NCBI GenBank assembly: GCA_036399275.1
Contig: DASWNK010000148.1
Location: 1,784-65,783 of the forward strand
Reading direction: 5' to 3'
From: Bacteroidia bacterium
GTDB taxonomy: Bacteria; Bacteroidota; Bacteroidia; 2-12-FULL-35-15
Length of the DNA stretch: 64,000 bases
In this document: in pieces, positions 2,763 through 43,815 of the stretch
Layout: each line of letters starts with the position of its first letter
Numbering within the stretch: the stretch's first letter is position 1
Notes under the pieces: model-generated
What the model was told of the DNA's origin: nothing
What the model saw: the letters and a program-made list of their open reading frames with translations, nothing else
Databases searched by the model: none
Position numbers and translations under genes: made by a program

Positions 2763-4877
2763 TCAGATCAATTGCAAAATGATTTGTGCGCCTTTAATAA
2801 AACTTGTTCCTGCATTGAGTGATTGCGATGTAACCGCACCACTGCCAATCAGTTTAACACGCATCCCGTTGTTCTCGAGAAGATAAAGAACATCACGTGC
2901 CGTCATTCCGTACAGGTTAGGAACAATGCCACGCTTCAGCGCTTCTTCCGTATTTTTTGCCGCGAGGGAAACAGATGTTGAATCCATCATCGCAGTGGAA
3001 ACCCATTCTGCTTTATCGTCATTCGTATTGTTTTTCACTTTCAACACCGATAAAATATTCTTGATTTCGGGCTGATAGCCATACTTTACAGCAGGCGCGC
3101 CTTTCGCATATGCCGGTTGCACAGCATTGATTTCTTTGTGGATTTCCAGGCTGGTAGAATATACTTTATCCGCCACATCCTTAAATACAGGCCCTGCCAC
3201 AGCACCACCATAATATGAATCGCCGCTTGGTGCGCTTACCACCACAATACAGGCATACTTTGGGTTATCGGCAGGAAAATACCCAACAAAAGAAGCCTGA
3301 TAAGTCATCTTGCCATTCACAATTCCCATCTGAGCTGTCCCTGTTTTCCCTGCGATTTGATAATCGGCCGCCTTCAAGCTCTTTGCCGTCCCGTTCAGCA
3401 CCACACCCTCCATCATCTTCTTCGCCTTCTCAACCGTTGATTTAGAACAGACCGCCGGGTTAATGATTTCCGGCTCAAAAACCTTAATCGATTTTCCACG
3501 GTTACGGATCTCTTTAACAAACATAGGGCGCATCATCTTTCCGTCGTTTGCAACTGCAGCATAAAAATTCAAAATCTGCAATGGGGTAATGCGACTTTCA
3601 TATCCGTAACTGATCCATTGCAAAGAGATCTTCGACCAGCTTTTATCATCCGTATTCTTAATGTATGGCTTGCCTTCGCCCGGAATAGGTATATTCAAAG
3701 GATCATTCAGATTCATTTTATACAAGCGATCGATGTATTTCTGAGGATCTTTAGCATAATATTTTGAAATGATCTTTGTTACTCCAACATTGGATGATAG
3801 CTCAAACACTTCCTGGACCGTGATCCTGCTTTTTTCGGGAGGATGCGAATCGGCAACCCGCTCATTACTATAATAACAAACACCATCACCTATGTCAACT
3901 ATTTCATTCAGACTTACATTAAAATCTTCCATCACCGCCACTAATGAAGGCAGCTTGAACGTTGATCCAGGAACCTGTGCATCAGCTAAAGCATAATTCA
4001 AATTCTCCACATAAGATGAGTCTTTACTTCGCTTCAGATTTGCAATTGCCTTTACTTCCCCTGTTTTTATTTCCATCAAAACCAGGCAGCCGTGATCAGC
4101 ACCATGTTTTCTCAAGGATTTCAATAAGGAATTTTCCGCCACGTCCTGCACATTGATGTCGATGGTAGAAACGATATCATCACCATCTTCCGGATCAATC
4201 TCATTCTCATCATTGATGGGTCGCCAAACATTTCCCGCGATCTTTTGCATCCAACGATGGCCGCTTGTTCCCATCAGCACGCTGTCAAAAGCCTTCTCTA
4301 ATCCATAGGATTTTCCAGTTCCATTTTCATTCAATTTCCCGATGGTTCTTGCGGCTAGAAACTGAAAGGGCCGTTCGCGTTTATTGGTTTGCAGATAAAC
4401 AAAACCTCCACGATTTTTCCCTCTTCTGAGAATGGGGAATTTTTTCATTTTCTGCAGATCCGTGTAGGAAACATTTCGCTGCAGAACCACCCATCGATCA
4501 CCATTCCGGCGGGCCTTCTGAAGTTGCTTTTTGTAGGTTTTGCTGGTTTTATCTTTAAATAAATTGGCAAGACAAATGGCTAATGAATCCACTTCTTGGT
4601 CAAATATTTTATCGGTGATAGCATCGGTGTTCACATCCATGCCTGTTTCGAAATAGGGCAATGAGGTTGCCAATAAGCTTCCATTGGCATCATAAATGTT
4701 GCCACGTACTGCTTCAATATCAAACTCCTTTGTTGAAAACCTTTCCGCTCTGGCTCTTAGCTCATCGCCTTCGGAAAATTGGATGAGACATATTTTGGAA
4801 ATAATAGCGACACCGAAGAGGCATATAAAAAAATATATGAGATATACACGCCACAGTATGTCTTTTTTAACTTCCAA
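2763..4877 (-). CDS. ftsI: Class B penicillin-binding protein / FtsI-type transpeptidase with C-terminal PASTA-like domain
   Basis: 704 aa with an N-terminal TM anchor. Transpeptidase motifs STFK, SSN and KTGT are present. dcw context; its stop lies 2 nt from the murE start. Confidence 0.9.
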   Translation of the reverse strand: MEVKKDILWRVYLIYFFICLFGVAIISKICLIQFSEGDELRARAERFSTKEFDIEAVRGNIYDANGSLLATSLPYFETGMDVNTDAITDKIFDQEVDSLAICLANLFKDKTSKTYKKQLQKARRNGDRWVVLQRNVSYTDLQKMKKFPILRRGKNRGGFVYLQTNKRERPFQFLAARTIGKLNENGTGKSYGLEKAFDSVLMGTSGHRWMQKIAGNVWRPINDENEIDPEDGDDIVSTIDINVQDVAENSLLKSLRKHGADHGCLVLMEIKTGEVKAIANLKRSKDSSYVENLNYALADAQVPGSTFKLPSLVAVMEDFNVSLNEIVDIGDGVCYYSNERVADSHPPEKSRITVQEVFELSSNVGVTKIISKYYAKDPQKYIDRLYKMNLNDPLNIPIPGEGKPYIKNTDDKSWSKISLQWISYGYESRITPLQILNFYAAVANDGKMMRPMFVKEIRNRGKSIKVFEPEIINPAVCSKSTVEKAKKMMEGVVLNGTAKSLKAADYQIAGKTGTAQMGIVNGKMTYQASFVGYFPADNPKYACIVVVSAPSGDSYYGGAVAGPVFKDVADKVYSTSLEIHKEINAVQPAYAKGAPAVKYGYQPEIKNILSVLKVKNNTNDDKAEWVSTAMMDSTSVSLAAKNTEEALKRGIVPNLYGMTARDVLYLLENNGMRVKLIGSGAVTSQSLNAGTSFIKGAQIILQLI

Positions 4878-7033: not shown

Positions 7034-8353
7034 TTGAGCGTGCTAAAAAAAATCACATACACCTGTTCCGACGTCAATTCAATCGTCAATATTGAAAGGC
7101 TAAACGAACGTTTTAACCGCGTATGTGTGTTTGATTCAAATCCTGATGTAAACGATCAAAAGCACATCGCGTCTTCGAAAATCATTGCTTTGGGCACAAT
7201 CCGCGAGTTGATCGTAAAACAACCCTATGCTTGTCTCGAAGAACTTGAGCAATTTTCCAATAAAAAACGAGGCTGGCTATTCGGATACCTGGCCTATGAT
7301 CTCAAGAATCCCATCGAGCAATTGGAATCTAAGAATAAAGACAGGCTTGAATTCCCATTGATCCATTTTTTTGAGCCAAAAGTGACGATACAAATTACAG
7401 GCAATGCATCGAACGTTTTTTTTGATGATGAATTTGTTTCAGAAAAAGAAGCAAAGGACATTTATGAAGACTGCTTTTCCGCCGCCGAGATTGTTACTGA
7501 AAATGATGTTCCGATCATTATTCAGGCTACACTTAGCAAAGAGGACTACATCGATGCAGTGAACAAACTAAAATCACACATCAAGAAAGGTGACATCTAC
7601 GAAATTAATTTCTGCCAGGAATTTTATGCGGAGAATGTTTCTGTAAATACTGCTTCCGTTTTTGAAAAACTAAATGCTATCTCCTCTGCGCCTTTTTCGG
7701 CATACGGAAAATTTGGCGCACAGTATTTACTTTGTGCAAGCCCGGAACGATTTCTGCGAAAACGCTCCAACAGTCTTATTTCACAACCTATCAAAGGCAC
7801 GATCAGGCGCTCGAAAAACAAGCAGGAAGATGATGAACTAAAAAAAGAATTACGAAACAACGGCAAAGAACAAAGTGAAAATGTAATGATCGTCGACCTC
7901 GTAAGAAACGATCTTTCGCGCATTGCTAAGAAAGGCACTGTGGAAGTGAAAGAACTCTTTGGAATCTATACTTTCAAACAAGTACACCAAATGATCTCCA
8001 CCATCAGTTGCGAATTAAAAGAAGGCGTTTCTTTTACGGAGATTCTGAAAAGTACGTTTCCCATGGGCTCCATGACCGGGGCCCCAAAAGTTAATGCAAT
8101 GAAGCTGATCGAACAATACGAGAGCAGTAAGCGCGGTTTGTACTCCGGTGCAATTGGCTATATTTCTCCTGAAGGAGATTTTGATTTTAATGTGGTGATT
8201 CGAAGCATCCTTTATAATGCTGAAAAGAAAGCCTTGTCGTTCATGGTAGGAAGCGCCATCACTGACAAAGCTGACGCTGAGCAGGAATACGAAGAATGTC
8301 TGCTGAAAGCAAAAGCCATGTTTGAAGCATTAGGAACAACTATTAATCAATAG
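7034..8353 (+). CDS. pabB: Aminodeoxychorismate (or anthranilate) synthase component I family protein
   Basis: 439 aa with chorismate-binding enzyme motifs PIKGTIRRS and PMGSMTGAPK. The short N-terminal domain favours PabB over TrpE. The ORF-track start is TTG, so the exact start is uncertain. Confidence 0.78.
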   Translation: MSVLKKITYTCSDVNSIVNIERLNERFNRVCVFDSNPDVNDQKHIASSKIIALGTIRELIVKQPYACLEELEQFSNKKRGWLFGYLAYDLKNPIEQLESKNKDRLEFPLIHFFEPKVTIQITGNASNVFFDDEFVSEKEAKDIYEDCFSAAEIVTENDVPIIIQATLSKEDYIDAVNKLKSHIKKGDIYEINFCQEFYAENVSVNTASVFEKLNAISSAPFSAYGKFGAQYLLCASPERFLRKRSNSLISQPIKGTIRRSKNKQEDDELKKELRNNGKEQSENVMIVDLVRNDLSRIAKKGTVEVKELFGIYTFKQVHQMISTISCELKEGVSFTEILKSTFPMGSMTGAPKVNAMKLIEQYESSKRGLYSGAIGYISPEGDFDFNVVIRSILYNAEKKALSFMVGSAITDKADAEQEYEECLLKAKAMFEALGTTINQ

Positions 8354-8357
8354 AAAA

Positions 8358-9692
8358 ATGCATCAAGACTTGCTTAACTATATTACAGAAGAGAAACTGT
8401 TCGGCCCGGCAGATAAAGTGCTATTGACTGTTAGCGGCGGAATAGATTCCGTTGTGATGTGCGCACTATTTCATAAAGCCGGATTATCATTTGGAATTGC
8501 TCATTGCAATTTTCAACTAAGGGGCGAAGAAAGCGAAGCAGATGAATTATTAACAGAGGAACTGGCAGAGAAATACGGTGTGCAATTTCACTCCATTTCG
8601 TTTGACACCTCAGCCGTTGCAAAAAAAAACAAGCTGTCGATACAAGCCGCTGCAAGACAATTACGTTATCAGTGGTTTGAAGAAATCAGGGAACAATATA
8701 AATACAAAGCCATTGCGACTGCACATCACCAGGACGATTCCGTTGAAACATTTTTTATTAATCTGGTTCGCGGAACGGGTATTTCGGGCCTGCATGGTAT
8801 TTTACCAAAACAAGGAAAAATAATCCGCCCGATGCTTTTTACTACAAAGAAGGCCATTGAAGCATATGCAAAGAAAAACAAAATCAAATACAGGGAAGAC
8901 AGCAGCAATGCCTCTGATAAATACGCACGGAATAAGATCCGGCATCACCTCATCCCTGTTCTAAAGGAGCTTAACCCCAATCTGGAACAAACTATCCAGG
9001 AAGATATCCAGCGCCTGCACGAAACAGAGATCATTTATAAAAAAGAAATCGACAGAGAACGTTCTCAATTGCTGAAAGAAACAAAAGGTGGAATTACGAT
9101 TTCTATTGAAAAATTAAAGAAGCTAAATCCATTGTCTGCTTATTTATATGAATTTCTGAAAACATATCATTTTAATGGAAGCCATGTAAAGGATGTTATT
9201 CATTCCCTGAATGGAATTTCGGGCAAACAATTTTTTTCGGAGACGCACCGGCTGATCAAAGACAGGAGAGAATTGATCATAGAACCGATAAACCGGAAGG
9301 AGGAAGCGAAAGAAGGTAAGAAGGTCCTGATCAGCGAAAACAGCAAAGCAATAATTGTTGATGGCAAGAAAATTATCTTTCACTCCGTAAAAGCAGAAAA
9401 ACACCAAGTAAAAAAAAGCAATACTTGCGCAAACCTTGATTTTGATTTACTGACCTTTCCTTTGGAGATCCGAAAGTGGAAAACCGGAGATGCATTCTAT
9501 CCTTTAGGAATGAGGGGCAAAAAAAAATTAAGTGATTTTTTCATTGATAGGAAATTCTCACTGGATCGGAAAGAGAATATATGGCTGCTCACTTCGGCAG
9601 GGAAGATCGTTTGGGTGATCGGAGAAAGAATTGATGACCGGTTTAAAATCACAGATAAAACGAGTAAAATTTATTTTGCCGAACAGGTTTAG
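8358..9692 (+). CDS. tilS: tRNA(Ile)-lysidine synthase TilS
   Basis: 444 aa with the PP-loop SGGIDSVVM near the N-terminus and a TilS C-terminal domain. Starts 4 nt after pabB. Confidence 0.9.
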   Translation: MHQDLLNYITEEKLFGPADKVLLTVSGGIDSVVMCALFHKAGLSFGIAHCNFQLRGEESEADELLTEELAEKYGVQFHSISFDTSAVAKKNKLSIQAAARQLRYQWFEEIREQYKYKAIATAHHQDDSVETFFINLVRGTGISGLHGILPKQGKIIRPMLFTTKKAIEAYAKKNKIKYREDSSNASDKYARNKIRHHLIPVLKELNPNLEQTIQEDIQRLHETEIIYKKEIDRERSQLLKETKGGITISIEKLKKLNPLSAYLYEFLKTYHFNGSHVKDVIHSLNGISGKQFFSETHRLIKDRRELIIEPINRKEEAKEGKKVLISENSKAIIVDGKKIIFHSVKAEKHQVKKSNTCANLDFDLLTFPLEIRKWKTGDAFYPLGMRGKKKLSDFFIDRKFSLDRKENIWLLTSAGKIVWVIGERIDDRFKITDKTSKIYFAEQV

Positions 9693-33363: not shown

Positions 33364-36300
33364 ATGTTTAAAAAACTTACCTTTCTAATTGGTATCACAG
33401 CGTTACTCATGGCAGCTCCAAAGCTAGCCAACGCTTCTCACATTGCAGGCGGAGAAATCACTTATACCTGCCTCGGTGGAAACCAGTACGAGATCAATTT
33501 GAATCTTTTTGTGGATTGCCTGGGGTTTAATCCGGGGCCTTCCCAAACCATTAACTTCATCAGCAGCTGCGGAGGAAGTGCAACCCTGAATGTTCCGGTG
33601 AGCCCGGCTACAATCAACGGACTGGAAATCTCTCAATTATGTCCTTCTGCCCTTGCCAACAGTACTTGTAACGGCGGAACGTTACCCGGAATGTGGCTTT
33701 TCAGTTATACCGGTATAGTAACTTTAGCGCCGCCTTGTGATACCTGGACAATGAGCTGGGCGCTCTGCTGCAGAAATACTGCAATGACCAATGTATCCAG
33801 CTACGACTATTATATTGAAGCGACTTTAAACAGCGCAACAGCATTGTGCAACAGCTCACCTCAATTTACCGCTCAACCCATCCCTTATGTTTGTATTGGC
33901 CAGGTTGTGAATTACAGTTACGGCGTTATTGAGCCCGATGGCGATTCTCTTTTCTATTCCCTGATCCCTGCTTTGGATTCAGCAGGTGTTTCTGTTACTT
34001 ACAATGCAGGTTATTCTGGAACATCGCCGATCCCGGGCATCACCATCAATTCAACAACCGGACTGGTTACTTTTACTCCCGCCTTATTGGGAAATTTTGT
34101 CGTGGCTATTTTAGTTCAGGAATACGATTCAAACGGAGACCTTGTTGGATCCGTTATGCGCGACATTCAATTTATAGTGCAGAGCTGTACGAATGTTGTT
34201 CCTCCCTCTACCGGTGGTGCAATCACCAGTTTCAGCGGAAACGCTGTACAAACAGGACCTTATAGCATTGAAATGTGTGCGGGTAACTGCTTCAACTTCA
34301 CAGCAACGTATACGGATAGCGATGCGGCAGACTCGCTTACTTATATTTCCAACATTACTGCTGCATTGCCTGGTGCTACCGTCACAGCTGCAGGTATAAA
34401 TCCTTTGGTATTGGACATCGACTGGTGTTCTCCTGCAGGAACGGCGGGACAAAATTTAACGTTTACCATTACGATTCAGGATGGCGCCTGCCCGATTCAG
34501 GGACAACAGGTTTTTGTTTATAACGTCAACATTCTTGACGCAACAACTGCAAGTCCCGACGTTGCTATTTGCGGCGCCCAAACAGCAGCACTCGATGCTT
34601 ATGGCGGAAGTATCTTTAACTGGTCGGTGATTTCCGGGCCCCCTATGACCCCATCCAACTTCTCTTGTAATCCTTGTTCCAGCCCGGTGGCTTCTCCATC
34701 AGCAACCACCTCTTACCAGGTAGTGAGTAACCTTAGCGGAACCTGCGACAACATCGATACGGTAACAGTATTTGTTGCTCCCAGCTTTACCTATACTGTT
34801 ACACAAAGCTCAACCAGCTCGTGTTTGCAGGATCCTGTTCAACTGGATGTAACAGCATTATCACCGGCAGGAGCTTATACCTTTTTATGGACACCGGCTA
34901 CCAATCTGAGCAATGCCACAATCCAAAACCCAATTGCTACTTTTTTAACGCCGGGAACTTATACCTATACGGTAACAATCACCAGTCCTTCAGGTTGTGC
35001 TCAATCCACCGTATTATCGATCAGTGCAGCGCCATCATTTATACCGCAGATTACCGCACACAATGATACCTCCTTTTGTCCAGGCGGTATAGCAAACCTG
35101 AGTGTCACATTCGACGGAGGATCAACACCACCAAGCTGCGGATTAAGCGCTTCCGGCGGTTGCGGAGGAGTTTCCATATCTGGAACAGTTGGTACAGGAA
35201 CAGGTGCAAACACCTCTACTACATGGCCGGCTATTTTCGGCAACTGGTATACCTCCAACAAACATCAGATGTTGTTCACAGCAGCAGAGTTAAATGCTGC
35301 CGGAATCACCGGAGGGAAGATCGATCAGTTGGATCTGAATGTGACCGCCATTAATGGTATCAGCGTTTATCATCAGTTCACAATTAAAATGAAATGCACT
35401 TCCATAACAGCACTTGGAGCTACCTGGGAATCCGGATTAGTGCAGGTATTCAACCCTGCCACCGTAAACGTGATTGTCGGCTGGAATACCATGCTGCTGA
35501 ACAATGCTTTTGAATGGGATGGCATATCTAACATTGTGGTAGAGATTTGCAGCACAGAGGGTGCGCCATATCCGAACTATACCCAAAGCTGTATTTCTCC
35601 ATACACCACCACTACCTTTACTTCCTGCTTATTTAGTTATACCGACTCGTTCGATATGTGCCCGAATCTTACCAATTTGGTAACACCAACCAACAATCGT
35701 CCAAACATTCGTTTTCACTATTGTTCCGTCGCTTCGAACCCAGCTAACTATACTTATTCATGGACACCTGCCAGTGGTGTGATCGCAGATTCATCTGCAC
35801 AAAGCACAACAGGGATGCCGCCAACAAGCATGGATTATATCATTACAGTAACGGATATTGCAGGAGGCTGCTTCGATCAGGATACTGTTCATGTAACATT
35901 GATTAACGTAGATACATTGACTGTTACTCCTGCCGGACCGTTTTGTGTGAATGCTCCGGTTCAGACACTTGCCGTGTCAGTACCGACAGGAACAGGGCTT
36001 TGGTCAGGAACAGGAATCACCAATACTACTACGGGAACATTCGATCCTGCCATTGCGGGAGCTGGCTCCCACCAGATCATGTACAATGTAAGCGCCGCTT
36101 GTGGAACAGGAGCAGACACTATTACTGTGGTAGTGCTACCTCAACCGGATGCTACCATTACAGCTGTAGGCAGTCAATGTGTTACCGCCGCGGCGGCGAT
36201 CACACTTAGTGCAGCAACGGTCGGCGGAACATGGTCCGGACCAGGTATCACCAGCGGTTCTGCAGGAACCTTTGATCCGGCAACCGCGGGAGTTGGTAAC

Positions 36301-37389
36301 CATCTGATCACCTATAATATTATTACACCTTGCACTTCGCAGGATACGATCATGATCAATGTTATTCCACAATTGAATGCGACTATTCTCAATGTCGGAC
36401 CATTCTGTACCACCGATCCTTCTGTTACGTTAACGGCGGCTGATCCGAGTGGAACGTGGACAGGGACTGGAATCACGAATGCAACTACGGGCGTTTTCGA
36501 TCCTGCCACTGCCGGACCAGGAACGCACCTGATCACTTATACCATTGCGGGATTATGCGGAGCAGAGGCTACTTCGCTGATCACCGTAGTAGCTACGCCT
36601 GTTATTTCCTTTACATCGGATACAACAGAAGGCTGTGAACCTACAACGATCATCTTTAACAGCACAGTGAGCCAGCCGGGCGGAACGTATGCATGGACAT
36701 TTGGTGACGGAGGAATTTCCAACGTAGCGAATCCAAGCAATACCTATGTGGCTAATGGTCTTTATACTGTGTCCCTTACCTATACCAATACCACAGGCTG
36801 CAGCGCTTCAGTAACACAAACTGATATGATCAACATTCATTCACAACCTGTTGCTATATTCTCCTATGGACCACAGCCTACAACGATAACCAACCCGGTG
36901 ATCAACTTTACGGATAACTCTCTAGGACTGATCAACAACTGGAACTGGATGTTTGGAGCAGGAGGGATTTTAGGATCATCTACTCAGCAGAACCCTTATT
37001 ACGGGTTTACAGAATCGGGGGTATATCCAGTTCAGCTGATCGTGACCAATAATTTCGGTTGTGCCGATACGGCAGACAATGTGGTAATTATTGAATCGAT
37101 TGTAGTATTCTACGCTCCCAATGCATTCAGCCCGGATGGAAACGGAGACAATGATGAGTTCATGGTAAAGGGAGATGGCATCGACAATTCTACTTTCGAA
37201 ATGCTGATTTATGACCGCTGGGGAGAACAAATTTTCAAATCAAATGACATTCACACAGGCTGGAACGGAAGACGCAATAATATGGGTGCTGAGCTGGTAC
37301 AGCAGGAAGTGTATGTATGGAAGGTGGCTTTTAAGGATTTGAAAAACCAAAAACACAATTATATCGGCAGTGTAACAATTGTCAAATAA
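33364..37389 (+). CDS. Large surface adhesin-like protein with PKD/Ig-like repeats and gliding-motility-associated (type B T9SS) C-terminal domain
   Basis: 1341 aa with a signal peptide. A 76-78-aa repeat occurs three times (35929-36565). PKD-like block. C-terminus FYAPNAFSPDGNGDNDEF...WNGR...YVWKV is typical of the CHU_C/type B sorting domain. Confidence 0.85.
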   Translation: MFKKLTFLIGITALLMAAPKLANASHIAGGEITYTCLGGNQYEINLNLFVDCLGFNPGPSQTINFISSCGGSATLNVPVSPATINGLEISQLCPSALANSTCNGGTLPGMWLFSYTGIVTLAPPCDTWTMSWALCCRNTAMTNVSSYDYYIEATLNSATALCNSSPQFTAQPIPYVCIGQVVNYSYGVIEPDGDSLFYSLIPALDSAGVSVTYNAGYSGTSPIPGITINSTTGLVTFTPALLGNFVVAILVQEYDSNGDLVGSVMRDIQFIVQSCTNVVPPSTGGAITSFSGNAVQTGPYSIEMCAGNCFNFTATYTDSDAADSLTYISNITAALPGATVTAAGINPLVLDIDWCSPAGTAGQNLTFTITIQDGACPIQGQQVFVYNVNILDATTASPDVAICGAQTAALDAYGGSIFNWSVISGPPMTPSNFSCNPCSSPVASPSATTSYQVVSNLSGTCDNIDTVTVFVAPSFTYTVTQSSTSSCLQDPVQLDVTALSPAGAYTFLWTPATNLSNATIQNPIATFLTPGTYTYTVTITSPSGCAQSTVLSISAAPSFIPQITAHNDTSFCPGGIANLSVTFDGGSTPPSCGLSASGGCGGVSISGTVGTGTGANTSTTWPAIFGNWYTSNKHQMLFTAAELNAAGITGGKIDQLDLNVTAINGISVYHQFTIKMKCTSITALGATWESGLVQVFNPATVNVIVGWNTMLLNNAFEWDGISNIVVEICSTEGAPYPNYTQSCISPYTTTTFTSCLFSYTDSFDMCPNLTNLVTPTNNRPNIRFHYCSVASNPANYTYSWTPASGVIADSSAQSTTGMPPTSMDYIITVTDIAGGCFDQDTVHVTLINVDTLTVTPAGPFCVNAPVQTLAVSVPTGTGLWSGTGITNTTTGTFDPAIAGAGSHQIMYNVSAACGTGADTITVVVLPQPDATITAVGSQCVTAAAAITLSAATVGGTWSGPGITSGSAGTFDPATAGVGNHLITYNIITPCTSQDTIMINVIPQLNATILNVGPFCTTDPSVTLTAADPSGTWTGTGITNATTGVFDPATAGPGTHLITYTIAGLCGAEATSLITVVATPVISFTSDTTEGCEPTTIIFNSTVSQPGGTYAWTFGDGGISNVANPSNTYVANGLYTVSLTYTNTTGCSASVTQTDMINIHSQPVAIFSYGPQPTTITNPVINFTDNSLGLINNWNWMFGAGGILGSSTQQNPYYGFTESGVYPVQLIVTNNFGCADTADNVVIIESIVVFYAPNAFSPDGNGDNDEFMVKGDGIDNSTFEMLIYDRWGEQIFKSNDIHTGWNGRRNNMGAELVQQEVYVWKVAFKDLKNQKHNYIGSVTIVK

Positions 37390-37411: not shown

Positions 37412-37442
37412 AATGCCCCTGGAAACCAGGGGCATTTTTTTT
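37412..37442 (+). terminator. Rho-independent terminator after the adhesin gene
   Basis: AATGCCCCTGG / CCAGGGGCATT 11-bp stem with a 3-nt loop and a T-run. Confidence 0.88.
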
Positions 37443-37537: not shown

Positions 37538-37612
37538 GGGAGCTTAGCTCAGCTGGTTCAGAGCATCTGCCTTACAAGCAGAGGGTCACTGGTTCGAACC
37601 CAGTAGTTCCCA
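37538..37612 (+). tRNA. tRNA-Val (anticodon UAC)
   Basis: Folded by hand into a 75-nt cloverleaf. Acceptor GGGAGCT/AGTTCCC with one G-U pair. D arm GCTC/GAGC. Anticodon arm TCTGC-CTTACAA-GCAGA. T arm ACTGG-TTCGAAC-CCAGT. Discriminator A. CCA is not encoded. Confidence 0.93.
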
Positions 37613-37613
37613 C
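37591..37613 (+). repeat. attL core (within the tRNA-Val T arm/acceptor)
   Basis: GGTTCGAACCCAGTAGTTCCCAC, identical to 41516-41538. Confidence 0.9.
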
Positions 37614-37618
37614 CCAGA

Positions 37619-37649
37619 GGGTTTAACAGAAATGTTAAGCCCTTTTTTT
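37619..37649 (+). terminator. Hairpin plus T-run immediately after tRNA-Val (element-borne)
   Basis: GGGTTTAAC / GTTAAGCCC stem with one G-T pair, a 6-nt loop and T7. Confidence 0.7.
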
Positions 37650-37721
37650 ATTCCCGCCACTTTCCCGCTAAATACATTGATAAATAAGGGCTTTGCGCCT
37701 AATTGCTTGCATTAAAAAAGG

Positions 37722-37748
37722 GGTTCAGATAGGTTCAGGCGGGTTCAG
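37722..37748 (+). repeat. Three 10-bp phased GGTTCAG repeats (candidate recombinase/RDF binding sites)
   Basis: GGTTCAG at 37722, 37732 and 37742. They share GGTTC with the first bases of the att core. Confidence 0.85.
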
Positions 37749-37750
37749 CA

Positions 37751-37782
37751 TACGCACCCTTTACGCACCCAGTTACGCACCC
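37751..37782 (+). repeat. Three TACGCACCC repeats, 11-12 bp phase (candidate arm-type sites, left arm)
   Basis: TACGCACCC at 37751-37759, 37762-37770 and 37774-37782. Confidence 0.85.
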
Positions 37783-37809
37783 AAGAAATAAATTATAACT
37801 TTGTAGCCT

Positions 37810-38010
37810 ATGGCAGAGGAAACAAAACGCAAGGATGCACGCATCGAAACACCTCAACACAATGCAGAGGTATTGCTCTCTTTCGGGGGTTTGTATTACA
37901 TTGGGACTTATAATGTAGAGGCAAGGGGCTTTGAAACTCGTGAGGGAAACTTTTTTGTAGTCAATGACAAAGCACCCCCAATATTTTGGAGCGAACTACC
38001 TAAGGGCTAA
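37810..38010 (+). CDS. Hypothetical small protein (element-borne)
   Basis: 66-aa ORF with an ATG start. No recognisable family. Whether it is coding is uncertain. Confidence 0.35.
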   Translation: MAEETKRKDARIETPQHNAEVLLSFGGLYYIGTYNVEARGFETREGNFFVVNDKAPPIFWSELPKG

Positions 38011-38020
38011 AATTAACACC

Positions 38021-38121
38021 TCAAAAAAAACGCCTCCACCGCATTTCACTTGGGAAACGCACAAATGTTATGCACGCATAATAAATGGGCAATGTCAAAA
38101 AAACCACCTCCACCGCATTTC
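38021..38121 (+). repeat. 27-bp direct repeat x2 (25/27 identical), 74 bp apart
   Basis: TCAAAAAAAACGCCTCCACCGCATTTC (38021-38047) and TCAAAAAAACCACCTCCACCGCATTTC (38095-38121), in the non-coding gap downstream of terS. Confidence 0.88.
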
Positions 38122-38150
38122 GCTAAAGATTTGATTTTCTACATTTAGAA

Positions 38151-38180
38151 ATGTAATGATTTGTAATGAATTGATAATGA
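38151..38180 (+). repeat. Three 10-bp phased iteron-like repeats ATGTAATGAT / TTGTAATGAA / TTGATAATGA
   Basis: Read directly from the sequence. The third unit contains TTGATA. Confidence 0.8.
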
Positions 38181-38216
38181 GGCAGTTACAAGAACTCGTA
38201 CGTTGTTAGCTAAATA

Positions 38217-38609
38217 TTACCCCTTTCCATCGGTAGCAATGATCTTAATAATAACGGGTTCGCCTGTATTGTCGATCTTAGTAGTTACAAAGTACCCAAG
38301 CATTCTAATAACTGTATTCATTAAGGAGGCGTAAGCATTATAATTGCCTTTCCTGAGGGCGATCTCGCTTGTATCAATGAGTTCGGATATAATTCTCTCC
38401 TTAGTTATGTTGTATTTAAGGGCAAGTTCCTCTTTTTTCTTCTGTATTGCGTTGTTAATGTCAGTATTTGCAAGCAATTTAAAGCCGTTTGCCTTAGCCG
38501 TTGCATAGGTTGAACGTGGATAGGCGTGCAAATATGCTTGGGTTGCGTTGCTATGGGTTGCGTAATGCTCTGTAAATCGGTAATGAGCGGGTGTAAGTGT
38601 TGTTTTCAT
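38217..38609 (-). CDS. Phage terminase small subunit-like protein (Terminase_2-type HTH)
   Basis: 130 aa. The N-terminus LTPAHYRFTEHYATHSNATQAYLHAYPRSTYATAKANGFKLLANTDINNAI follows the TerS pattern LTxxxxxFxxxYxxxxNATQAxxxAGYSxxxAxxxxxxLLxxxxI. No large-terminase gene lies nearby. Confidence 0.65.
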   Translation of the reverse strand: MKTTLTPAHYRFTEHYATHSNATQAYLHAYPRSTYATAKANGFKLLANTDINNAIQKKKEELALKYNITKERIISELIDTSEIALRKGNYNAYASLMNTVIRMLGYFVTTKIDNTGEPVIIKIIATDGKG

Positions 38610-38635
38610 ATATATAAATTATTCAATATTCGTTA

Positions 38636-39556
38636 TCAATGGTGCCTGCCGGCACCATGATAACTTAATTTTTTAGAGTATAGAAAGCCCTTACGTGCGG
38701 AATGTTCATATACCCGCTCCATTGGCAGGCGTTCTATTGTTTTTTTTCTTTTTTTTATTTCTTCTTTCTCTCTCTCAATGGGTGCATTGGGCAAGTATGG
38801 CTTATAGACTTGTTGAGGGCTCTGTTTTTTTTCTTTATTAATTCTTTCGTTTACTTGCTGATCTATTAAAGCCCTGTAAGTATGCACCCTGTTTTGTTCC
38901 TGCAAGTTTTCGCCTCTTATAACACCCTCACGTTTCACCTCAGCATATAGTTTACCGCAATACAGTAGTTGAATAAGCGGGTAAAGGTTTGTTTCTGTTT
39001 TTTTTCTTTTATTCATTTCTTCTTTGGTTTGTTTACTATAAATATTTATAGAAATGCGTTTTTGGTAGTTGAGGGCAAAATTTTCTTTGCTTGCTGGCAG
39101 GGTGTTTCCAAGTTGCTTGCTTAAATAGCTATATATAAAGTCGCTTGTAACTTGTCGGGAAACAATGTGAATTGATCTACATCCCATTTGCTTTTTAATC
39201 TTGTTGAGGTGGTTTTTCTCCTTATAATATACGATCTCGCTTAATTGACTGAGGTAATCCTTTGCAATGAATAAGTGTATATGTAGCTCAGGCTCTAAAT
39301 TGAAATCTGCATATCCATTGTAATGAGTTAAGGAGCTGTTTTGTTCTAATACCAATATGTATGGGGGTTGCTCAGGTAATAAGTTGCTTATATAGGTGTT
39401 TGCCTCCTTAGCTGAGTATATGCGTGTCTTAGGTTGAATGGTAACGAACATCATATTTTGCCCATTGTCCCCAAACAAAGTGAGGTACTTGTTATAGAAA
39501 CTTTCAAGGGCTTCTTTCTTAGTTAGATATGAGGTTTTATAGGTGTTTGGTGGCAT
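38636..39556 (-). CDS. HUH-type rolling-circle replication initiator-like protein
   Basis: Three ordered motifs: FVTIQP (motif I-like), ELHIHLFIA (HUH, codons 39275-39283) and YSYLSKQ (YxxK, 39116-39127). Lys/Glu-rich C-terminal tail. ATG at 39556 preferred over the TTG at 39586. Confidence 0.5.
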   Translation of the reverse strand: MPPNTYKTSYLTKKEALESFYNKYLTLFGDNGQNMMFVTIQPKTRIYSAKEANTYISNLLPEQPPYILVLEQNSSLTHYNGYADFNLEPELHIHLFIAKDYLSQLSEIVYYKEKNHLNKIKKQMGCRSIHIVSRQVTSDFIYSYLSKQLGNTLPASKENFALNYQKRISINIYSKQTKEEMNKRKKTETNLYPLIQLLYCGKLYAEVKREGVIRGENLQEQNRVHTYRALIDQQVNERINKEKKQSPQQVYKPYLPNAPIEREKEEIKKRKKTIERLPMERVYEHSARKGFLYSKKLSYHGAGRHH

Positions 39557-39837
39557 TGGGCAAAAGTTCAACTTCCGTAAACTCAATGTTTACGCTGGTT
39601 TTAGCTGTTTTAAATGTTAGTAAAAAAATAGGGGCTCAAAGTATCTACACCTCAACCCCTCTTATCAACATCACTTTTCCTTTCGATCTCTAATAAATAG
39701 AGGAATAAAAGAATAGTATCGAATTTGACCTATCAAAACCAAATGAAAGTTGCAGTTTTTTGCCTGTAAAATTATAACTACTTGATTATGAGGTAGAATA
39801 AATTTTGTGCTTTTGTTGGGTGTGTATTTATTTTTTT

Positions 39838-40119
39838 ATGGGTCATCCCTATAAGCGGATGACAGACAAGAAACTCATCCAATTATTAAAGCAACAAAAT
39901 GCCGAACTCCTTAAGGCGTTGCAAAAGGAATTAGCCCCGCTCAGGAGAAAGAAATACTACACCTATAAAGAGGCAAGCGAGATATTATGTATTAGCGTGG
40001 AGGGCTTAAAAACACGATTGAAACGAGGCGAAATGTTTAAGGTGTGTAATAACGGGCGACCTCTGATCTCAGGGGTTGAGATTGACAGATATTTAAAATC
40101 ACAAAACCCAGGATTTTAA
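39838..40119 (+). CDS. Helix-turn-helix (excisionase/MerR-like HTH_17) DNA-binding protein
   Basis: The block YTYKEASEILCISVEGLKTRLKRGEM is typical of the small HTH proteins found beside Bacteroidota integrases. Transcribed divergently from rep. The start could be 39838 or 39859. Confidence 0.6.
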   Translation: MGHPYKRMTDKKLIQLLKQQNAELLKALQKELAPLRRKKYYTYKEASEILCISVEGLKTRLKRGEMFKVCNNGRPLISGVEIDRYLKSQNPGF

Positions 40120-40128
40120 TAAAATAAA

Positions 40129-40151
40129 ATGGTGGGGAAAGTCCCCACCAT
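40129..40151. terminator. Perfect 10-bp hairpin between convergent HTH and int genes
   Basis: ATGGTGGGGA-AAG-TCCCCACCAT. No clean T-run follows, so terminator function is uncertain. Confidence 0.4.
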
Positions 40152-40173
40152 GAAGATTCTAATAAATTTTAGA

Positions 40174-41397
40174 TTATGCTATTTTCATATTGGAGAAAAC
40201 ATTTACAAGTTTCTCATCGACTTTACTTTGTTCTAAGTTTACATAGCGGGAAAACGATCTGTAATCGGAGTGCGTACTCATTTGCATTACCTCAGATATT
40301 GAAAGCCCCCCCTCCAATGAAATGGATATAAAACTTTTGCGTGCATCGTGTATCGAAATCAATTCGTGTACTGGTTTTTGTTCCTGTGTTTGATTGTTGA
40401 GGTGTTGAATAATAATCGTTTCCTCTCGATCAATTCCGCAAAGTTTAACCCCTGCTTTGATGTTCTTATTTAACTTTTGATTTGATATATCTAAAGGCAA
40501 TACATTGTTGTACTTAGCAAGTATCTGCACTGCCTCAGGAATTAATTTAATACGGAGCTCTGTATTAGTTTTGTGTGTGTTGATATGTAGGTACCCGTTC
40601 TTAATGTTGTGTTTATTTACCTGCATCAAATCGTTATAGCGTAAGCCAAGGAAGGTTGCGAAACAAAACACGTCCTTTGCCCTTTCAAGATTTGTTTTGT
40701 CTTTGAAATCAAAATGGAAATACTGGAATAGTTCGTTTTGATGTAGTGTTATAATACGTTGATCTGTTTCTTTAACACGTTTTATTTTCATCCAGTCAGT
40801 TGCTGAGGTGTGCTTATTGTCAAAAGCCCAACGACAAAACACTTTGAGTGTTACGATCATTTTGTTAATTGTTGGGTTTTGTAAATTCTTTGAGCCCTTA
40901 ACGTGTTTGCTTTTTGTGCTCAAAAACTTGGCGAACTTTTCCGCCCATTTCGGATTCATATCGGCAAATTGTGTAGAGGGGTTGAAATCTTGCAGGTGGT
41001 TTATAAGGGTTGTAAATGGCTTAAGTGCACCCTCTTTCAAAAATCCTGCTCTCTCTCCTTTGAATTGTTCTAATAAGGCGGTTAAGTCTTTCTTGCCACG
41101 TTCAACATTGATAGTGTTTACATTGGCTGTAATGAAATCTTTTGCCTCGCTAAGACTTGCAATGTCATTGGCTAACTTTACATTCGTCATATATTTTTCG
41201 AATGCACTTTGGTATTTATTCAGGTATAACTTAATATTGTCGTTTTTACTTCCTGCTTTTGGCTTGCCCTCTTTCCATTGGTTAATGACGATCTTTTGAC
41301 CTGTTGAAATAATTGCTTTTACTCCACGCTCTGAAAGTATCCCACGTATAGTTCCTTCCTTGTCGTTGATCTTTTTTAATTCAAAATAAAAGTGCAT
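40174..41397 (-). CDS. int: Tyrosine site-specific integrase (Bacteroidota phage-integrase family with N-terminal arm-binding/SAM-like domains)
   Basis: Catalytic residues are readable: R in LGLRYNDL, HxxR in IHDARKSF, and H...Y in HSDYRSFSRYV. Start set to ATG 41397 (MHFYFELKK) because the ORF-track extension translates the TACGCACCC repeats. Confidence 0.88.
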   Translation of the reverse strand: MHFYFELKKINDKEGTIRGILSERGVKAIISTGQKIVINQWKEGKPKAGSKNDNIKLYLNKYQSAFEKYMTNVKLANDIASLSEAKDFITANVNTINVERGKKDLTALLEQFKGERAGFLKEGALKPFTTLINHLQDFNPSTQFADMNPKWAEKFAKFLSTKSKHVKGSKNLQNPTINKMIVTLKVFCRWAFDNKHTSATDWMKIKRVKETDQRIITLHQNELFQYFHFDFKDKTNLERAKDVFCFATFLGLRYNDLMQVNKHNIKNGYLHINTHKTNTELRIKLIPEAVQILAKYNNVLPLDISNQKLNKNIKAGVKLCGIDREETIIIQHLNNQTQEQKPVHELISIHDARKSFISISLEGGLSISEVMQMSTHSDYRSFSRYVNLEQSKVDEKLVNVFSNMKIA

Positions 41398-41442
41398 CTT
41401 GTTGAGGTGTTTGGTTATGCAAATGTAATTCTTTTTATAAGA

Positions 41443-41463
41443 TACGCACCCAACTACGCACCC
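41443..41463 (+). repeat. Two TACGCACCC repeats, 12 bp phase (candidate arm-type sites, right arm / int promoter region)
   Basis: TACGCACCC at 41443-41451 and 41455-41463, in the same orientation as the left-arm copies. They lie 46-66 bp upstream of the int ATG (41397) and 53 bp from the attR core. Confidence 0.85.
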
Positions 41464-41515
41464 AAACAATACAATTAATATGCAAGTATCTGATTGTCAA
41501 TTAAGTAAAATAAAA

Positions 41516-41538
41516 GGTTCGAACCCAGTAGTTCCCAC
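41516..41538 (+). repeat. attR core (orphan copy of the tRNA-Val 3' end)
   Basis: GGTTCGAACCCAGTAGTTCCCAC. No tRNA 5' half lies upstream; the flank is AAAA instead of CACT. Confidence 0.9.
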
Positions 41539-41547
41539 GGAAAAAGA

Positions 41548-41576
41548 AAGCCTTACAGAAAGGTGAGGCTTTTTTG
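41548..41576 (+). terminator. Hairpin plus T-run after attR (probably the displaced ancestral tRNA-Val terminator)
   Basis: AAGCCT / AGGCTT stem with a 12-nt loop and T5. Confidence 0.55.
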
Positions 41577-41700: not shown

Positions 41701-43815
41701 CTAAACCCTCACCCCTATCACACACACATCATCTACCTGCTCCAGGTTTCCTCTCCAGCTTTCAAGCGCTTTTTCGAGAATCTCTCTTTGCTGGTCCAGT
41801 GGTTCCTGATGATGTTGAAGGAGTAATTCCTTTAACATTTTGTATTTGAATTTTTTTCCTTTGTCGCCGCCGAACTGGTCGGCATAACCATCTGTGAAGA
41901 TGTAAAGGATATCATTTGTTTCCAGCTCAATGCTTTGGCGCGTGAAGGAATTATTGTTCTCTCCTAAACCAATCGGCATCTTATCATATTTTAATTCAAT
42001 GATCTCGCTGTTACGAATTAGGATGGATTTATTTTGTGCTGCTGCATAGGTTAAGGTTTTGCTTTTCTTATCCAGGCAAAGCAAAATTCCATCCATTCCA
42101 TCTTTCGCTCCTTCAAGTGAGATTCCACCAATCAGGCGTTCGCGCACATGATTAAAGATCTGTTCCGGTAGGTAGAGCTTCTTTTCATTAATGGCTTCGT
42201 TGAGGAAAGAGATATTGAGCAGGCTCATGAAAGCGCCCGGCACACCGTGTCCTGTGCTATCGCATACAGCCAGATAAAACTGTTCGGTGTTGGCAGCTAA
42301 AGTTGCCCAGTAGAAATCGCCGCTGACAATGTCCTTCGGCTTGTAGAGAACAAAATGTTCGAGTAAGTTTTGTTTTAAAAATGCATCGTGCGCCAATAAG
42401 GTTCGCTGAATTCTTTTTGCATAAAGAATCGAATCAGTCACTTCTTTATTCTTTTGCTCCACCACCGTTTTCTGTTCTTCAATTATTTTGTTTTGCGCAT
42501 TGGTGATCCTGAAGCGTTGAAACAGGAAATAAGAAAACAGTAAAACAATGATCAGCACGGCAATCATGATGTATCCGATGAAACGCTGCTGTTTCTTCTC
42601 TATGTCTTTCTTTTTTAATTCTGCTTCTGCTTCGCTTTTTAATTCATGCTCCTGGCGATCGAGCGCAAACTGCATTTTCAGGTTACTGAAAGTAGTGTTC
42701 TTGGTAGCGTTGAAAATACTGTCCTTCAATTGTGTCAGGATCTCATGGTAATGCAAAGCTTCTTTTGTATTGTCAGCTGCCTTATAGGTTTCATACATTC
42801 CCTCGGCGGAGCTTTGCTGATCTTCGAGACTGCCGGTTTCTTTTGCAATCTCGTAAGCTGTCTTATAATACTGCAAAGCAACATCGCTTTTTTTCAAGGC
42901 CTTGTTTGTATTCCCGAGCATGTTCAATTGCTCAGTCTGAAATTTCTTTTCACCGAGTTGTTTGGAAACCGCCAGGCCTTGCTCAAATTCAACGATCGCT
43001 TCATTGTATTTTCCTTCATCGTAATACAACAAACCAATATTCCCATGAGTCTCTGCTTTTCCTCTCAGATCATCCATTTCATTAGCAATGCTCAATGCCT
43101 GGTCGAGGTATTGTTTGGACGATGCAAACTCCTGCTTCATGCGGTACAAGGATCCCAGGTGGTTCAGCGAAGCGATCATGTCGATCTTGTTTCCCATTTC
43201 CTTGTGAATAGCGAAGCTCTTTTTCTGATAGACCAATGCAAGACTATCTTCTCCCAGCTTGCTGTACATTACGGCAATGTTGCCAATGCTGGCGGCAATA
43301 AAGTATCTGTTCCCCAATTGTTCCTGGAGCTTCATCCCTTTCTGCATGTATTCAATGGCTTTGATAAAATCAGAAAGGTTGTAATAAATGATTCCTATAT
43401 TATTGTAGGCGGTGGCAATTCCTTTTATGTTATTCGTCTCTTCGCTGATCGCAAGGTTCTTGTGATGGTATTCCAGTGCTTTTGCATAATCGGAGCTTTC
43501 TGAATAAATATTTCCGAAAGTATTATAAGAAGCTGCGATCCCTTTTTTATAGCCGAGCCTGGTGGATAATGCAAGTGATTTCTCTGCATACGAGAGCGCT
43601 TTTTTTGTTTCCCCTTTGCGCATGAGCGTTACACTAATGCGTTGGTATGTTTTGATCCTTACGGTATCATGAAGATCCGTATTTAAACTCGTTAATAAAG
43701 AATCTAAATTATAATTCTGTGCCTTCATCTGAATGAGGCAGGAACGGAACAAAAGGATAAGACAGATTCTTCTTATGAGTGGATTGTAGACTTGCAGTTT
43801 CATATAGCTCTCCAA
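41701..43815 (-). CDS. Membrane-anchored TPR-repeat sensor with C-terminal SpoIIE/PP2C phosphatase domain
   Basis: Signal-like N-terminus and about 8 TPR units (repeated YxxAlxyxxkal pattern). Coiled coil. One TM helix (FIGYIMIAVLIIVLLFSYFLF). PP2C blocks SGDFYW, VCDSTGHGVPGA, FTDGYADQFGG and DDVCVIGVRV. Confidence 0.85.
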   Translation of the reverse strand: MESYMKLQVYNPLIRRICLILLFRSCLIQMKAQNYNLDSLLTSLNTDLHDTVRIKTYQRISVTLMRKGETKKALSYAEKSLALSTRLGYKKGIAASYNTFGNIYSESSDYAKALEYHHKNLAISEETNNIKGIATAYNNIGIIYYNLSDFIKAIEYMQKGMKLQEQLGNRYFIAASIGNIAVMYSKLGEDSLALVYQKKSFAIHKEMGNKIDMIASLNHLGSLYRMKQEFASSKQYLDQALSIANEMDDLRGKAETHGNIGLLYYDEGKYNEAIVEFEQGLAVSKQLGEKKFQTEQLNMLGNTNKALKKSDVALQYYKTAYEIAKETGSLEDQQSSAEGMYETYKAADNTKEALHYHEILTQLKDSIFNATKNTTFSNLKMQFALDRQEHELKSEAEAELKKKDIEKKQQRFIGYIMIAVLIIVLLFSYFLFQRFRITNAQNKIIEEQKTVVEQKNKEVTDSILYAKRIQRTLLAHDAFLKQNLLEHFVLYKPKDIVSGDFYWATLAANTEQFYLAVCDSTGHGVPGAFMSLLNISFLNEAINEKKLYLPEQIFNHVRERLIGGISLEGAKDGMDGILLCLDKKSKTLTYAAAQNKSILIRNSEIIELKYDKMPIGLGENNNSFTRQSIELETNDILYIFTDGYADQFGGDKGKKFKYKMLKELLLQHHQEPLDQQREILEKALESWRGNLEQVDDVCVIGVRV

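Follow-up and report, generated by a model that had tools for sequence, protein, structure and literature searches.

A gene for the small terminase subunit (TerS), unaccompanied by one for the large terminase subunit (TerL), is a hallmark of TerS-redirecting phage satellites when it is found on a small integrative replicon. This combination was encountered in a 64,000-nucleotide (nt) stretch of DNA (hereafter, the window) from a Bacteroidia bacterium (GenBank assembly GCA_036399275.1, contig DASWNK010000148.1, positions 1,784 to 65,783 of the forward strand). There, an element of 3,925 bp (measured from repeat start to repeat start) is inserted at a tRNA-Val gene and encodes a tyrosine integrase, a small helix-turn-helix (HTH) protein, a replication-initiator-like (Rep-like) protein, and TerS. 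The interval is almost certainly a real, intact integrative element of its family. The chances that it is a phage satellite, whose terS redirects a helper's terminase onto concatemers of the element, were judged to be about even.

Capsid-less integrative elements that bear TerS have already been described, namely the integrative mobile elements encapsidated in virions (VEIMEs; PMC9618062) and those tycheposons that resemble phage-inducible chromosomal islands (PICIs; 10.1101/2020.12.28.424599); the concept is therefore not new. The present elements differ in their compaction to four genes in 3.4-3.9 kb, in the orphan HUH-like initiator that replaces a primase, and in the host phylum. The elements constitute a small, previously undescribed family that is so far restricted to metagenome-assembled genomes (MAGs) and metagenomes of Bacteroidia/Bacteroidota, and no description of it was found in the searchable literature.

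VEIMEs are likewise small integrative elements (<5 to 16.8 kb) that lack capsid genes, and some of them carry TerS. They are packaged as concatemers of 8-17 copies, which is consistent with rolling-circle replication, and some are integrated in Flavobacteria (PMC9618062). However, VEIMEs were defined by their recovery from virions as concatemers, whereas the present family is known from genes and contigs alone. They are also marine, whereas the MAGs and metagenomes in the current study include peat and soil-type samples, and an HUH-type initiator is not mentioned in the main text of PMC9618062.

Tycheposons, which occur in Prochlorococcus and other marine bacteria, are tyrosine-recombinase elements at tRNA genes, as are the present elements, and they too combine one integration-replication backbone with either cargo or terS (or a major capsid protein gene), the types being linked by module exchange (10.1101/2020.12.28.424599). 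This likeness is one of organization, and homology of the backbones is no part of it. The tycheposons are comparable to PICIs in size (10-20 kb) and have primase, helicase, or polymerase modules, whereas the elements described here measure 3.4-6.2 kb and rely on the orphan HUH-like protein; the two also differ in host phylum and habitat.

The phage-inducible chromosomal minimalist islands (PICMI; PMC10803314) have a similarly sparse core of integrase, AlpA-like regulator, and replication protein. As in the model proposed below, they do without capsid remodeling and are packaged as concatemers in full-size helper heads. The element in the window is smaller than PICMI115 (6.1 kb, eight copies per concatemer; PMC10803314), which bears out the unusual compactness claimed for it in the original prediction, a reading of the DNA made earlier without database searches. 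PICMI are located beside fis in Vibrionaceae and have a primase but no terS. In contrast, the present elements of 3.4-3.9 kb are located at tRNA-Val in Bacteroidia, with an HUH-like protein and terS but no primase, which places the element in the window outside the PICMI definition.

The Staphylococcus aureus pathogenicity islands (SaPIs) and other PICIs share with this element an island TerS without TerL, an integrase, a replication initiator of their own (putative in the present case), and att repeats. PICIs, however, are about 10-15 kb in size, with a master repressor, a pri-rep module, and often genes for capsid remodeling or interference, none of which is present here. With its 3.9 kb, its single small HTH protein, and no primase or helicase match, the element in the window lies outside the PICI/SaPI definition as well.

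Boundaries and gene content of the element

A single tRNA gene, tRNA-Val(TAC), was detected in the window with ARAGORN (Rfam tRNA, 69.8 bits; Table 1). The tRNA body ends in 23 bases, GGTTCGAACCCAGTAGTTCCCAC, that are present as two perfect direct repeats bracketing 3.9 kb. Because such a repeat has a negligible probability of occurring by chance within 4 kb, and because one copy is the tRNA 3' end, the repeat was taken as real. The G+C content is ca. 35-38% inside the element vs. 40-50% in the flanks.

All open reading frames (ORFs) of at least 40 amino acids (aa) between the repeat copies were listed, and five were not mere antisense overlaps. They comprise int, the gene for the small HTH protein, the Rep-like gene (rep), terS, and a doubtful ORF of 66 aa. 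No gene for a capsid, portal, tail, or lysis protein, TerL, a relaxase, or a type IV coupling protein (T4CP) was found among these ORFs. Since every other ORF of this length overlaps the named genes on the opposite strand, the absence of structural, lysis, TerL, and conjugation genes holds. The original prediction had given the perfect repeat, this gene list, and this absence, and all three were confirmed.

The integrase ORF spans 40174-41469 (- strand). The longer version, from a TTG start to 41469, would overlap the arm-type repeats described below, and the ATG at 41397 is the likely start. The protein matched Phage_int_SAM_5 (PF13102; E = 2.8e-10, 40.9 bits vs. a cut-off of 22.3) and Phage_integrase (PF00589; E = 1.4e-8, 35.2 bits vs. 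a cut-off of 27.1). It thus has both the SAM-like N-terminal domain and the R..HxxR..H..Y signature of a tyrosine recombinase; the catalytic residues R253, H350, R353, H376, and Y385 are invariant among five orthologues. Orthologous integrases are 57-70% identical. The HTH gene is positioned between int and rep in every relative. Its product is a putative excisionase/AlpA-like regulator that matched HTH_17 weakly (E = 0.004-0.006, below the cut-off), as did all 10 family members, and that gave weak matches to phrog_668 and phrog_66.

The small terminase

The 130-aa product of terS scored 45.7 bits on Pfam Terminase_2 (gathering cut-off, 26.1) and matched phrog_51 (E = 1.3e-15). Its residues 5-114 were aligned to residues 5-109 of the 134-aa Pam5 small terminase (PDB 21di, 9 chains; E = 7.7e-7), and it is 26-29% identical to annotated phage TerS proteins across 87-95% of its length. 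Judged by these alignments, the protein is a true full-length TerS with the predicted DNA-binding HTH and oligomerization region. The original prediction had assigned it from an N-terminal pattern; with the Terminase_2 score and the full-length Pam5 alignment, the alternative of a generic HTH protein is ruled out. When used as a query in a word-indexed search of a 5.8-billion-protein set, TerS returned itself alone.

In the window copy and in three other lineages (loci L008, L014, and L015, described below), terS and rep share a strand, with terS lying 24-41 nt downstream. Ratios of dN to dS were calculated by the Nei-Gojobori method among these three loci, for which dS was about 0.6-3.8. The values were 0.15-0.20 for terS, 0.07-0.16 for int, 0.17-0.34 for the HTH gene, and 0.27-0.39 for rep. 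The ratio for terS is close to that for int, and terS is therefore held by selection as strongly as the integrase.

Every IMG/VR relative of the element TerS is encoded on a phage contig, directly upstream of a TerL of 393-407 aa (Terminase_3 plus Terminase_3C); no TerL was found in any member of the element family. The nearest phage lineage is that of the uncultivated phages L024-L042. The TerS proteins of the elements form a separate group, with N-domain identities of 39-47% within the group vs. 30-36% to the phage proteins. Their C-terminal tail is hydrophobic (P-x-I-x-I-I), whereas that of the phage TerS is acidic. In L024-L042, a coherent gene order was observed, i.e. an N6/N4 DNA methylase, TerS (~124 aa, with the acidic C-tail), and TerL.

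The Rep-like protein

The Rep-like protein (P0001) is encoded by an ORF that spans 38636-39586 (- strand); the public record calls its start at 39556. It contains, in order, the motifs FVTIQP, HIH, and YLSKQ. When 1.84 billion cluster representatives were scanned in full with HMMER, a family of 14 clusters was defined, i.e. the query and 13 relatives (E <= 8.7e-9). In the word-indexed search of the 5.8-billion-protein set, the single sequence returned itself alone, and the alignment used as a query added P0013 only. No match was obtained by tblastn against 50,697 phage and 72,556 plasmid records.

Very few positions are invariant in the alignment of the 14 sequences (A1; 22-45% identity to the query). 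Those that are invariant or nearly so are F37 and P42 (motif I, FVTIQP), E71, H92-I-H94 (HUH), and Y144, K147, and Q148 (YxxKQ). They coincide with the positions that define Rep-class HUH enzymes, and their order (motif I, HUH, then the Tyr of YxxK) is the one by which such enzymes are recognized. In the Rep proteins of adeno-associated virus and circoviruses, a Glu on an adjacent strand and the HUH residues constitute the usual metal triad, and the Tyr is located 40-60 residues further on.

A model of the protein was calculated with AlphaFold2. With the alignment as input, the predicted local distance difference test (pLDDT) score was 75 overall and 77-94 for residues 10-160; without the alignment, it was 37, and that model was unusable. 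In the former, motif I is located on the strand of residues 35-40, the HUH motif on the strand of residues 82-98, and the Tyr on the helix of residues 138-150. E71 and the HUH motif are placed on the two strands of one long beta-hairpin. Foldseek was used to compare the model to BFVD; the top match was a Microvirus replication initiator (E = 3.3e-4, probability 1.0), and the few lower named matches were mostly to CRESS Rep, parvovirus NS1, and adomavirus EO1. On the strength of the conserved motifs and this model, the protein is probably an HUH rolling-circle initiator. It shares the ordered motif I, HUH, and YxxK and the upstream invariant Glu with the Reps of rolling-circle plasmids, Microviridae, and CRESS viruses, and it has no helicase domain, as is the case for plasmid Reps.

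Certain results must be set against this assignment. The TM-scores of the fold matches to HUH initiators were low (0.2-0.37, the top match included), and a Foldseek search of the PDB yielded only generic ferredoxin-like folds of the CutA/PII type (E ~5e-3). None of the 14 members gave a sequence match in Pfam, NCBIfam, PHROGs, or the PDB. Likewise, nothing was found when the Rep profile was compared to PDB sequences or, using hhalign, to the gokushovirus VP4 proteins of Chp2 and phiMH2K (<1% probability). Of the HUH Rep-like protein in the original prediction, the motifs stand, being invariant and located on the right secondary structure, and weak fold matches can be added to them; sequence similarity to an HUH family was not found. 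The protein also differs from known Reps in its coupling to a tyrosine integrase and, in a subset of members, to TerS. As far as sequence goes, the family is new, and it adds an HUH-like family without sequence relatives among known Reps.

The hairpin with a 7-bp stem upstream of rep (z = -2.96) has counterparts in most relatives, where a hairpin of different sequence precedes rep by 15-30 nt (z from -3.1 to +0.8). The arrangement is suggestive, yet with such mixed z-scores the hairpin is no more than a candidate origin or operator. At the gene's opposite end, most members of the family terminate in P-[YF]-[LM]-P-N-A-P (KPYLPNAP in the window, 38636-38700; A1 columns 301-320), which follows a poorly conserved helical region. 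This terminus could act as a peptide on which a host replication factor, e.g. a helicase or sliding clamp, docks.

Related elements and excised forms

The contigs of the relatives (numbered with the prefix L) were compared by tblastn and with hidden Markov models (HMMs) built from alignments. The int-HTH-Rep-TerS module was found, in the same order and orientation, in three other lineages, all at tRNA-Val(TAC). Compared to the window, the products of L008, L014, and L015 are 57-59% (integrase), 33-41% (HTH protein), 30-32% (Rep-like protein), and 33-38% (TerS) identical. The recurrence of the module and its occurrence outside full-size prophages, both of which had a bearing on the original prediction, were thereby established; the homologous modules were found in elements of 3.4-6.2 kb, never in prophages.

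In L008, a gene for the Holliday-junction resolvase RusA (7920-8468) and two unknown ORFs separate int from the HTH gene. RusA, a typical lambdoid-phage protein, could help to resolve branched concatemers before packaging. The short-read contigs L010, L014, and L015, all bearing TerS, end inside or just beyond the tRNA-Val core. Coexistence of occupied and empty sites, or of attL and attP, would be expected to produce an assembly-graph fork at the core.

In three independent metagenome contigs (Table 1), rep is followed by arm repeats, the core, arm repeats again, and int, and a complete tRNA is absent. Read from its sequence, this arrangement is an attP junction, from a form of ca. 3.3-3.5 kb that is either circular or tandem. 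Such contigs indicate that the backbone excises and probably replicates episomally, in the manner of an integrative plasmid. The int-HTH-Rep backbone is thus an integrative, probably rolling-circle replicon, to which TerS is a recurrent add-on. The integrated rolling-circle plasmid that the original prediction had offered as its alternative is the backbone of the family, whereas the satellite reading would apply to the TerS-bearing subset.

A second clade of Rep-like proteins (L005-L007, 10001-10765; L012/L013; L018, 1783-2526) was observed in islands of 10-20 kb that end in serine recombinases (Resolvase/Recombinase). This initiator family is therefore also used by a larger island class of a different kind. 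These islands are rich in defense-type genes, which include a PLD-SNF2 helicase, an Eco57I-type methylase, an SMC-like ATPase, a BamHI-type restriction-modification (R-M) system, and a CHAT protease.

Proposed satellite model and alternative explanations

The helper in the proposed model would be a pac-type (headful) phage, upon whose infection or induction the HTH protein and Int would excise the element. The Rep-like HUH enzyme would then nick an origin near its own gene, and rolling-circle replication would generate head-to-tail multimers. The element's TerS would bind a pac site on the element and recruit the helper's large terminase. Concatemers, on the order of ten copies per 35-40 kb head, would be packaged in helper capsids and transduced, and Int would re-insert the transduced element at tRNA-Val. 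Because the concatemer would be supplied by rolling-circle replication, a gene for capsid-size remodeling would be unnecessary.

The gene content has the general features of a satellite: an integrase and att sites of its own, a putative replication function, and neither structural nor lysis genes. Additionally, terS, which was found in four lineages and is under purifying selection, supplies the packaging-hijack gene. A broader proposal, which we advance tentatively and with slightly less assurance than the satellite assignment itself, is that these elements are the smallest phage satellites yet seen, with four genes in 3.4-3.9 kb. The new HUH initiator would make the concatemer, and the private TerS would hand it to the helper's TerL. 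The same chassis would also serve as a TerS-less plasmid and as a defense carrier, and the gain of terS alone would convert the plasmid to a satellite.

Were the element packaged, it would set a new lower size bound for satellites, under that of PICMI115, and a sufficient gene set would consist of an integrase, an excision regulator, a replication initiator, and one packaging-specificity protein. TerS-less circles, cargo carriers, and TerS carriers with one backbone and one attachment site would constitute a natural plasmid-to-satellite series. Satellites would also be extended to non-marine Bacteroidia, for which none was described in the literature found.

Several observations weigh against a satellite. 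The closest Rep (L002; 43-45% identical by tblastn/phmmer) belongs to an element that occupies the same tRNA-Val locus in a related host and lacks terS; the flank is 92% identical, the 23-bp core is identical, and the arm repeats follow rep directly. TerS is likewise missing from the GTDB genomes whose integrases are closest (L019-L022; 66-70%). Their cargo consists of small unrelated genes, and L019-L021 encode the HTH protein plus a more distant Rep-like protein (HMM E from 6e-10 to 8e-17). From this patchy distribution of TerS, it follows that the backbone spreads without it. Moreover, every junction or circular contig is TerS-less, and none was found for a TerS-bearing member; the excision foreseen in the original prediction was thus seen in the former group but not in the latter. 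The over-representation in viromes that it had also envisaged was not borne out. No packaging, induction, or transfer signal was found for any TerS-bearing member, and scans of IMG/VR with the integrase, a single Rep, a Rep sub-alignment, and a TerS alignment did not detect the integrase, Rep, or satellite-type TerS of the family. Comparison of TerS with its IMG/VR relatives revealed no phage TerS of the same subclade. A helper phage was not identified, nor were origin and pac sites located in the element.

The strongest rival explanation is an integrative rolling-circle plasmid that persists integrated or as an episome and spreads by other routes, and whose terS is defense or interference cargo, poisoning or misdirecting the packaging of pac-type phages and so protecting host and element. 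The patchy occurrence of TerS across the integrase and Rep relationships, the TerS-less attP-junction and circular contigs, and the failure to find the family in IMG/VR all accord with this explanation. So does the content of the slot after rep, which is occupied by an EcoRII R-M system plus Vsr in L001 and by a CHAT protein in L018, and so does the location of the second Rep clade in defense-rich islands. Nevertheless, TerS is full-length, and both its DNA-binding and oligomerization regions are under selection, which is what the redirection of packaging requires. It is also the sole non-backbone gene in the 3.4-kb elements L014 and L015, a circumstance that suits transfer at least as well as cargo. 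Finally, interference and self-packaging are coupled in characterized satellites, such that terS as cargo is compatible with a satellite. Taken as a rival, the cargo explanation was considered rather unlikely.

An integrative mobilizable element was deemed less likely still. Its HUH protein would be a relaxase acting at an oriT, the element would hitch-hike on a conjugative element of the host, and TerS would be incidental. It is established that HUH initiators and relaxases belong to one superfamily and that Rep-type relaxases exist; Bacteroidota are rich in conjugative transposons, and the TerS-less members require some route of transfer. Minimal hitchers of conjugative elements are discussed in 10.64898/2026.01.13.699239. 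However, profile searches returned no relaxase, T4CP, or Mob family match in any member, the fold matches and the position of HUH before the Tyr point to replication initiators, and a conserved terS under selection would be left unexplained.

A decayed prophage that kept int, a regulator, and terS was rejected as very improbable: although int and terS are phage-like, the att repeats are perfect, all ORFs are intact, no structural-gene debris is present between the repeats, and the compact gene set recurs in three other lineages at 30-60% aa identity with the same att layout and under purifying selection.

Attachment-site architecture and other features

The coordinates of all features are collected in Table 1. 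In the window, L002, L008, L014, and L015, the int-proximal end is laid out as core, ca. 50 nt, two arm-type repeats, and int. At the tRNA-proximal end of the same elements, the arm repeat is present in two or three copies, followed by three TGA(A)CC repeats and then by a terminator-like hairpin against the core. With arm-type sites on either arm, the tyrosine integrase recombines its attP core with the tRNA-Val(TAC) 3' end. The arm repeat varies in sequence among elements, yet it is identical at both ends within each element, which is the expected look of arm sites co-evolving with the integrase.

The triple TGA(A)CC array was found at the same place in every relative compared. Boxes like TGATAATCAG, which are related to the conserved box in the divergent HTH/rep promoter region, are present in both att arms of relatives. 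A TGATAATCAGTTAGTTA-like box is common to that promoter region and both att arms (L014, ~620-665 and 3990-4020; arms of L015, L003, and L008). Its presence in all of these places suggests that a single protein controls excision and transcription; the HTH protein may bind the box as both excision directionality factor and regulator.

A hairpin equivalent to that supplied by the element directly after the tRNA abuts the core in L002, L003, L008, L014, L015, L017, and L043. It is a replacement terminator for tRNA-Val, and the hairpin just beyond attR is presumably the host's original one.

Table 1. Coordinates of the element in the window, of related elements, and of attP-junction contigs
Feature	Position	Strand	Remarks
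tRNA-Val(TAC)	37538-37614	+	Integration target; 3' end = attL; ARAGORN, Rfam
attL core	37591-37613		Within tRNA 3' end; copy of 23-bp direct repeat
Terminator-like hairpin	37616-37645	+	Element-supplied, directly after tRNA
Three GGTTCAG repeats (other strand TGAACC)	37722-37748		Candidate site for HTH/Xis-like protein
Three arm-type repeats TACGCACCC	37751-37782		tRNA-proximal arm
66-aa ORF	37810-38010	+	Doubtful gene or lineage-specific accessory
Two 30-bp direct repeats TCAAAAAAAACGCCTCCACCGCATTTCACT	38021-38050, 38095-38124		90% identical, 74 bp apart; between terS and 66-aa ORF
terS, 130 aa	38217-38609	-	Pfam Terminase_2, phrog_51, PDB Pam5 match
Rep-like protein P0001, 306 aa	38636-39556	-	Putative HUH-Y1 rolling-circle initiator, new family
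Hairpin, 7-bp stem	39576-39594		~20 nt upstream of rep start; candidate origin or operator
Conserved box, consensus AAAATTTATTCTAnCTGATAATCAGTTAGTTA	39768-39806		Divergent HTH/rep promoter region
Small HTH_17-like protein, 93 aa from ATG	39838-40119	+	ORF opens at 39805
Bidirectional terminator hairpin	40129-40151		Between convergent HTH and int genes
Tyrosine integrase, 407 aa from ATG at 41397	40174-41397	-	Pfam, PHROG matches
Two arm-type repeats TACGCACCC	41443-41463		int-proximal arm
attR core	41516-41538		Displaced copy of tRNA 3' end; 23-bp direct repeat
Terminator-like hairpin	41544-41575	+	Just beyond attR
Arm repeat, window element			GGGTGCGTA
Arm repeat, L014			GGGGGCGT
Arm repeat, L015			TGGTAGCAA
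Arm repeat, L008			GGGTGCGA
Arm repeat, L017			GGGGTGCAA
L014	Core positions 610 and 4055		3,445 bp; int, HTH, Rep, TerS only
L015	Core positions 8015 and 11497		3,482 bp; int, HTH, Rep, TerS only
L008/L009/L010	Core positions 5617 and 11835		6,218 bp; four genes + RusA + two unknown ORFs
attP-junction contig L003/L004/L048	L003 1244-1500, same in L004/L048		TerS-less
attP-junction contig L043	414-666		TerS-less
attP-junction contig L017			TerS-less; 3432 bp, 21-bp terminal overlap, giving a 3,411-bp circle

Two features of the interval were rejected as conserved parts of the element because they are missing from relatives. The 66-aa ORF had no match in Pfam, NCBIfam, or PHROGs, nor by tblastn in any related locus, and L014 and L015 have no room for it. 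The 30-bp repeats have no counterpart in L014 or L015, which have no spacer there; a different pair of ~40-bp repeats follows rep in L003, and L002 has GGTGTTTTT repeats.

No prophage-like gene was apparent among the ORFs of at least 150 aa listed across the window, as judged without a profile library scan. The two 704-aa ORFs at 2763-4877 and 41701-43815 were considered as paralogues, and the notion was rejected, as they proved unrelated on comparison. The left neighbor of the element (33364-37389) encodes a repeat-rich protein of 1,341 aa, which was judged, from its C-terminal sequence only, to be secreted by a type IX secretion system (CHU_C-like). A strong terminator (37412-37436) is located just ahead of the tRNA-Val promoter.

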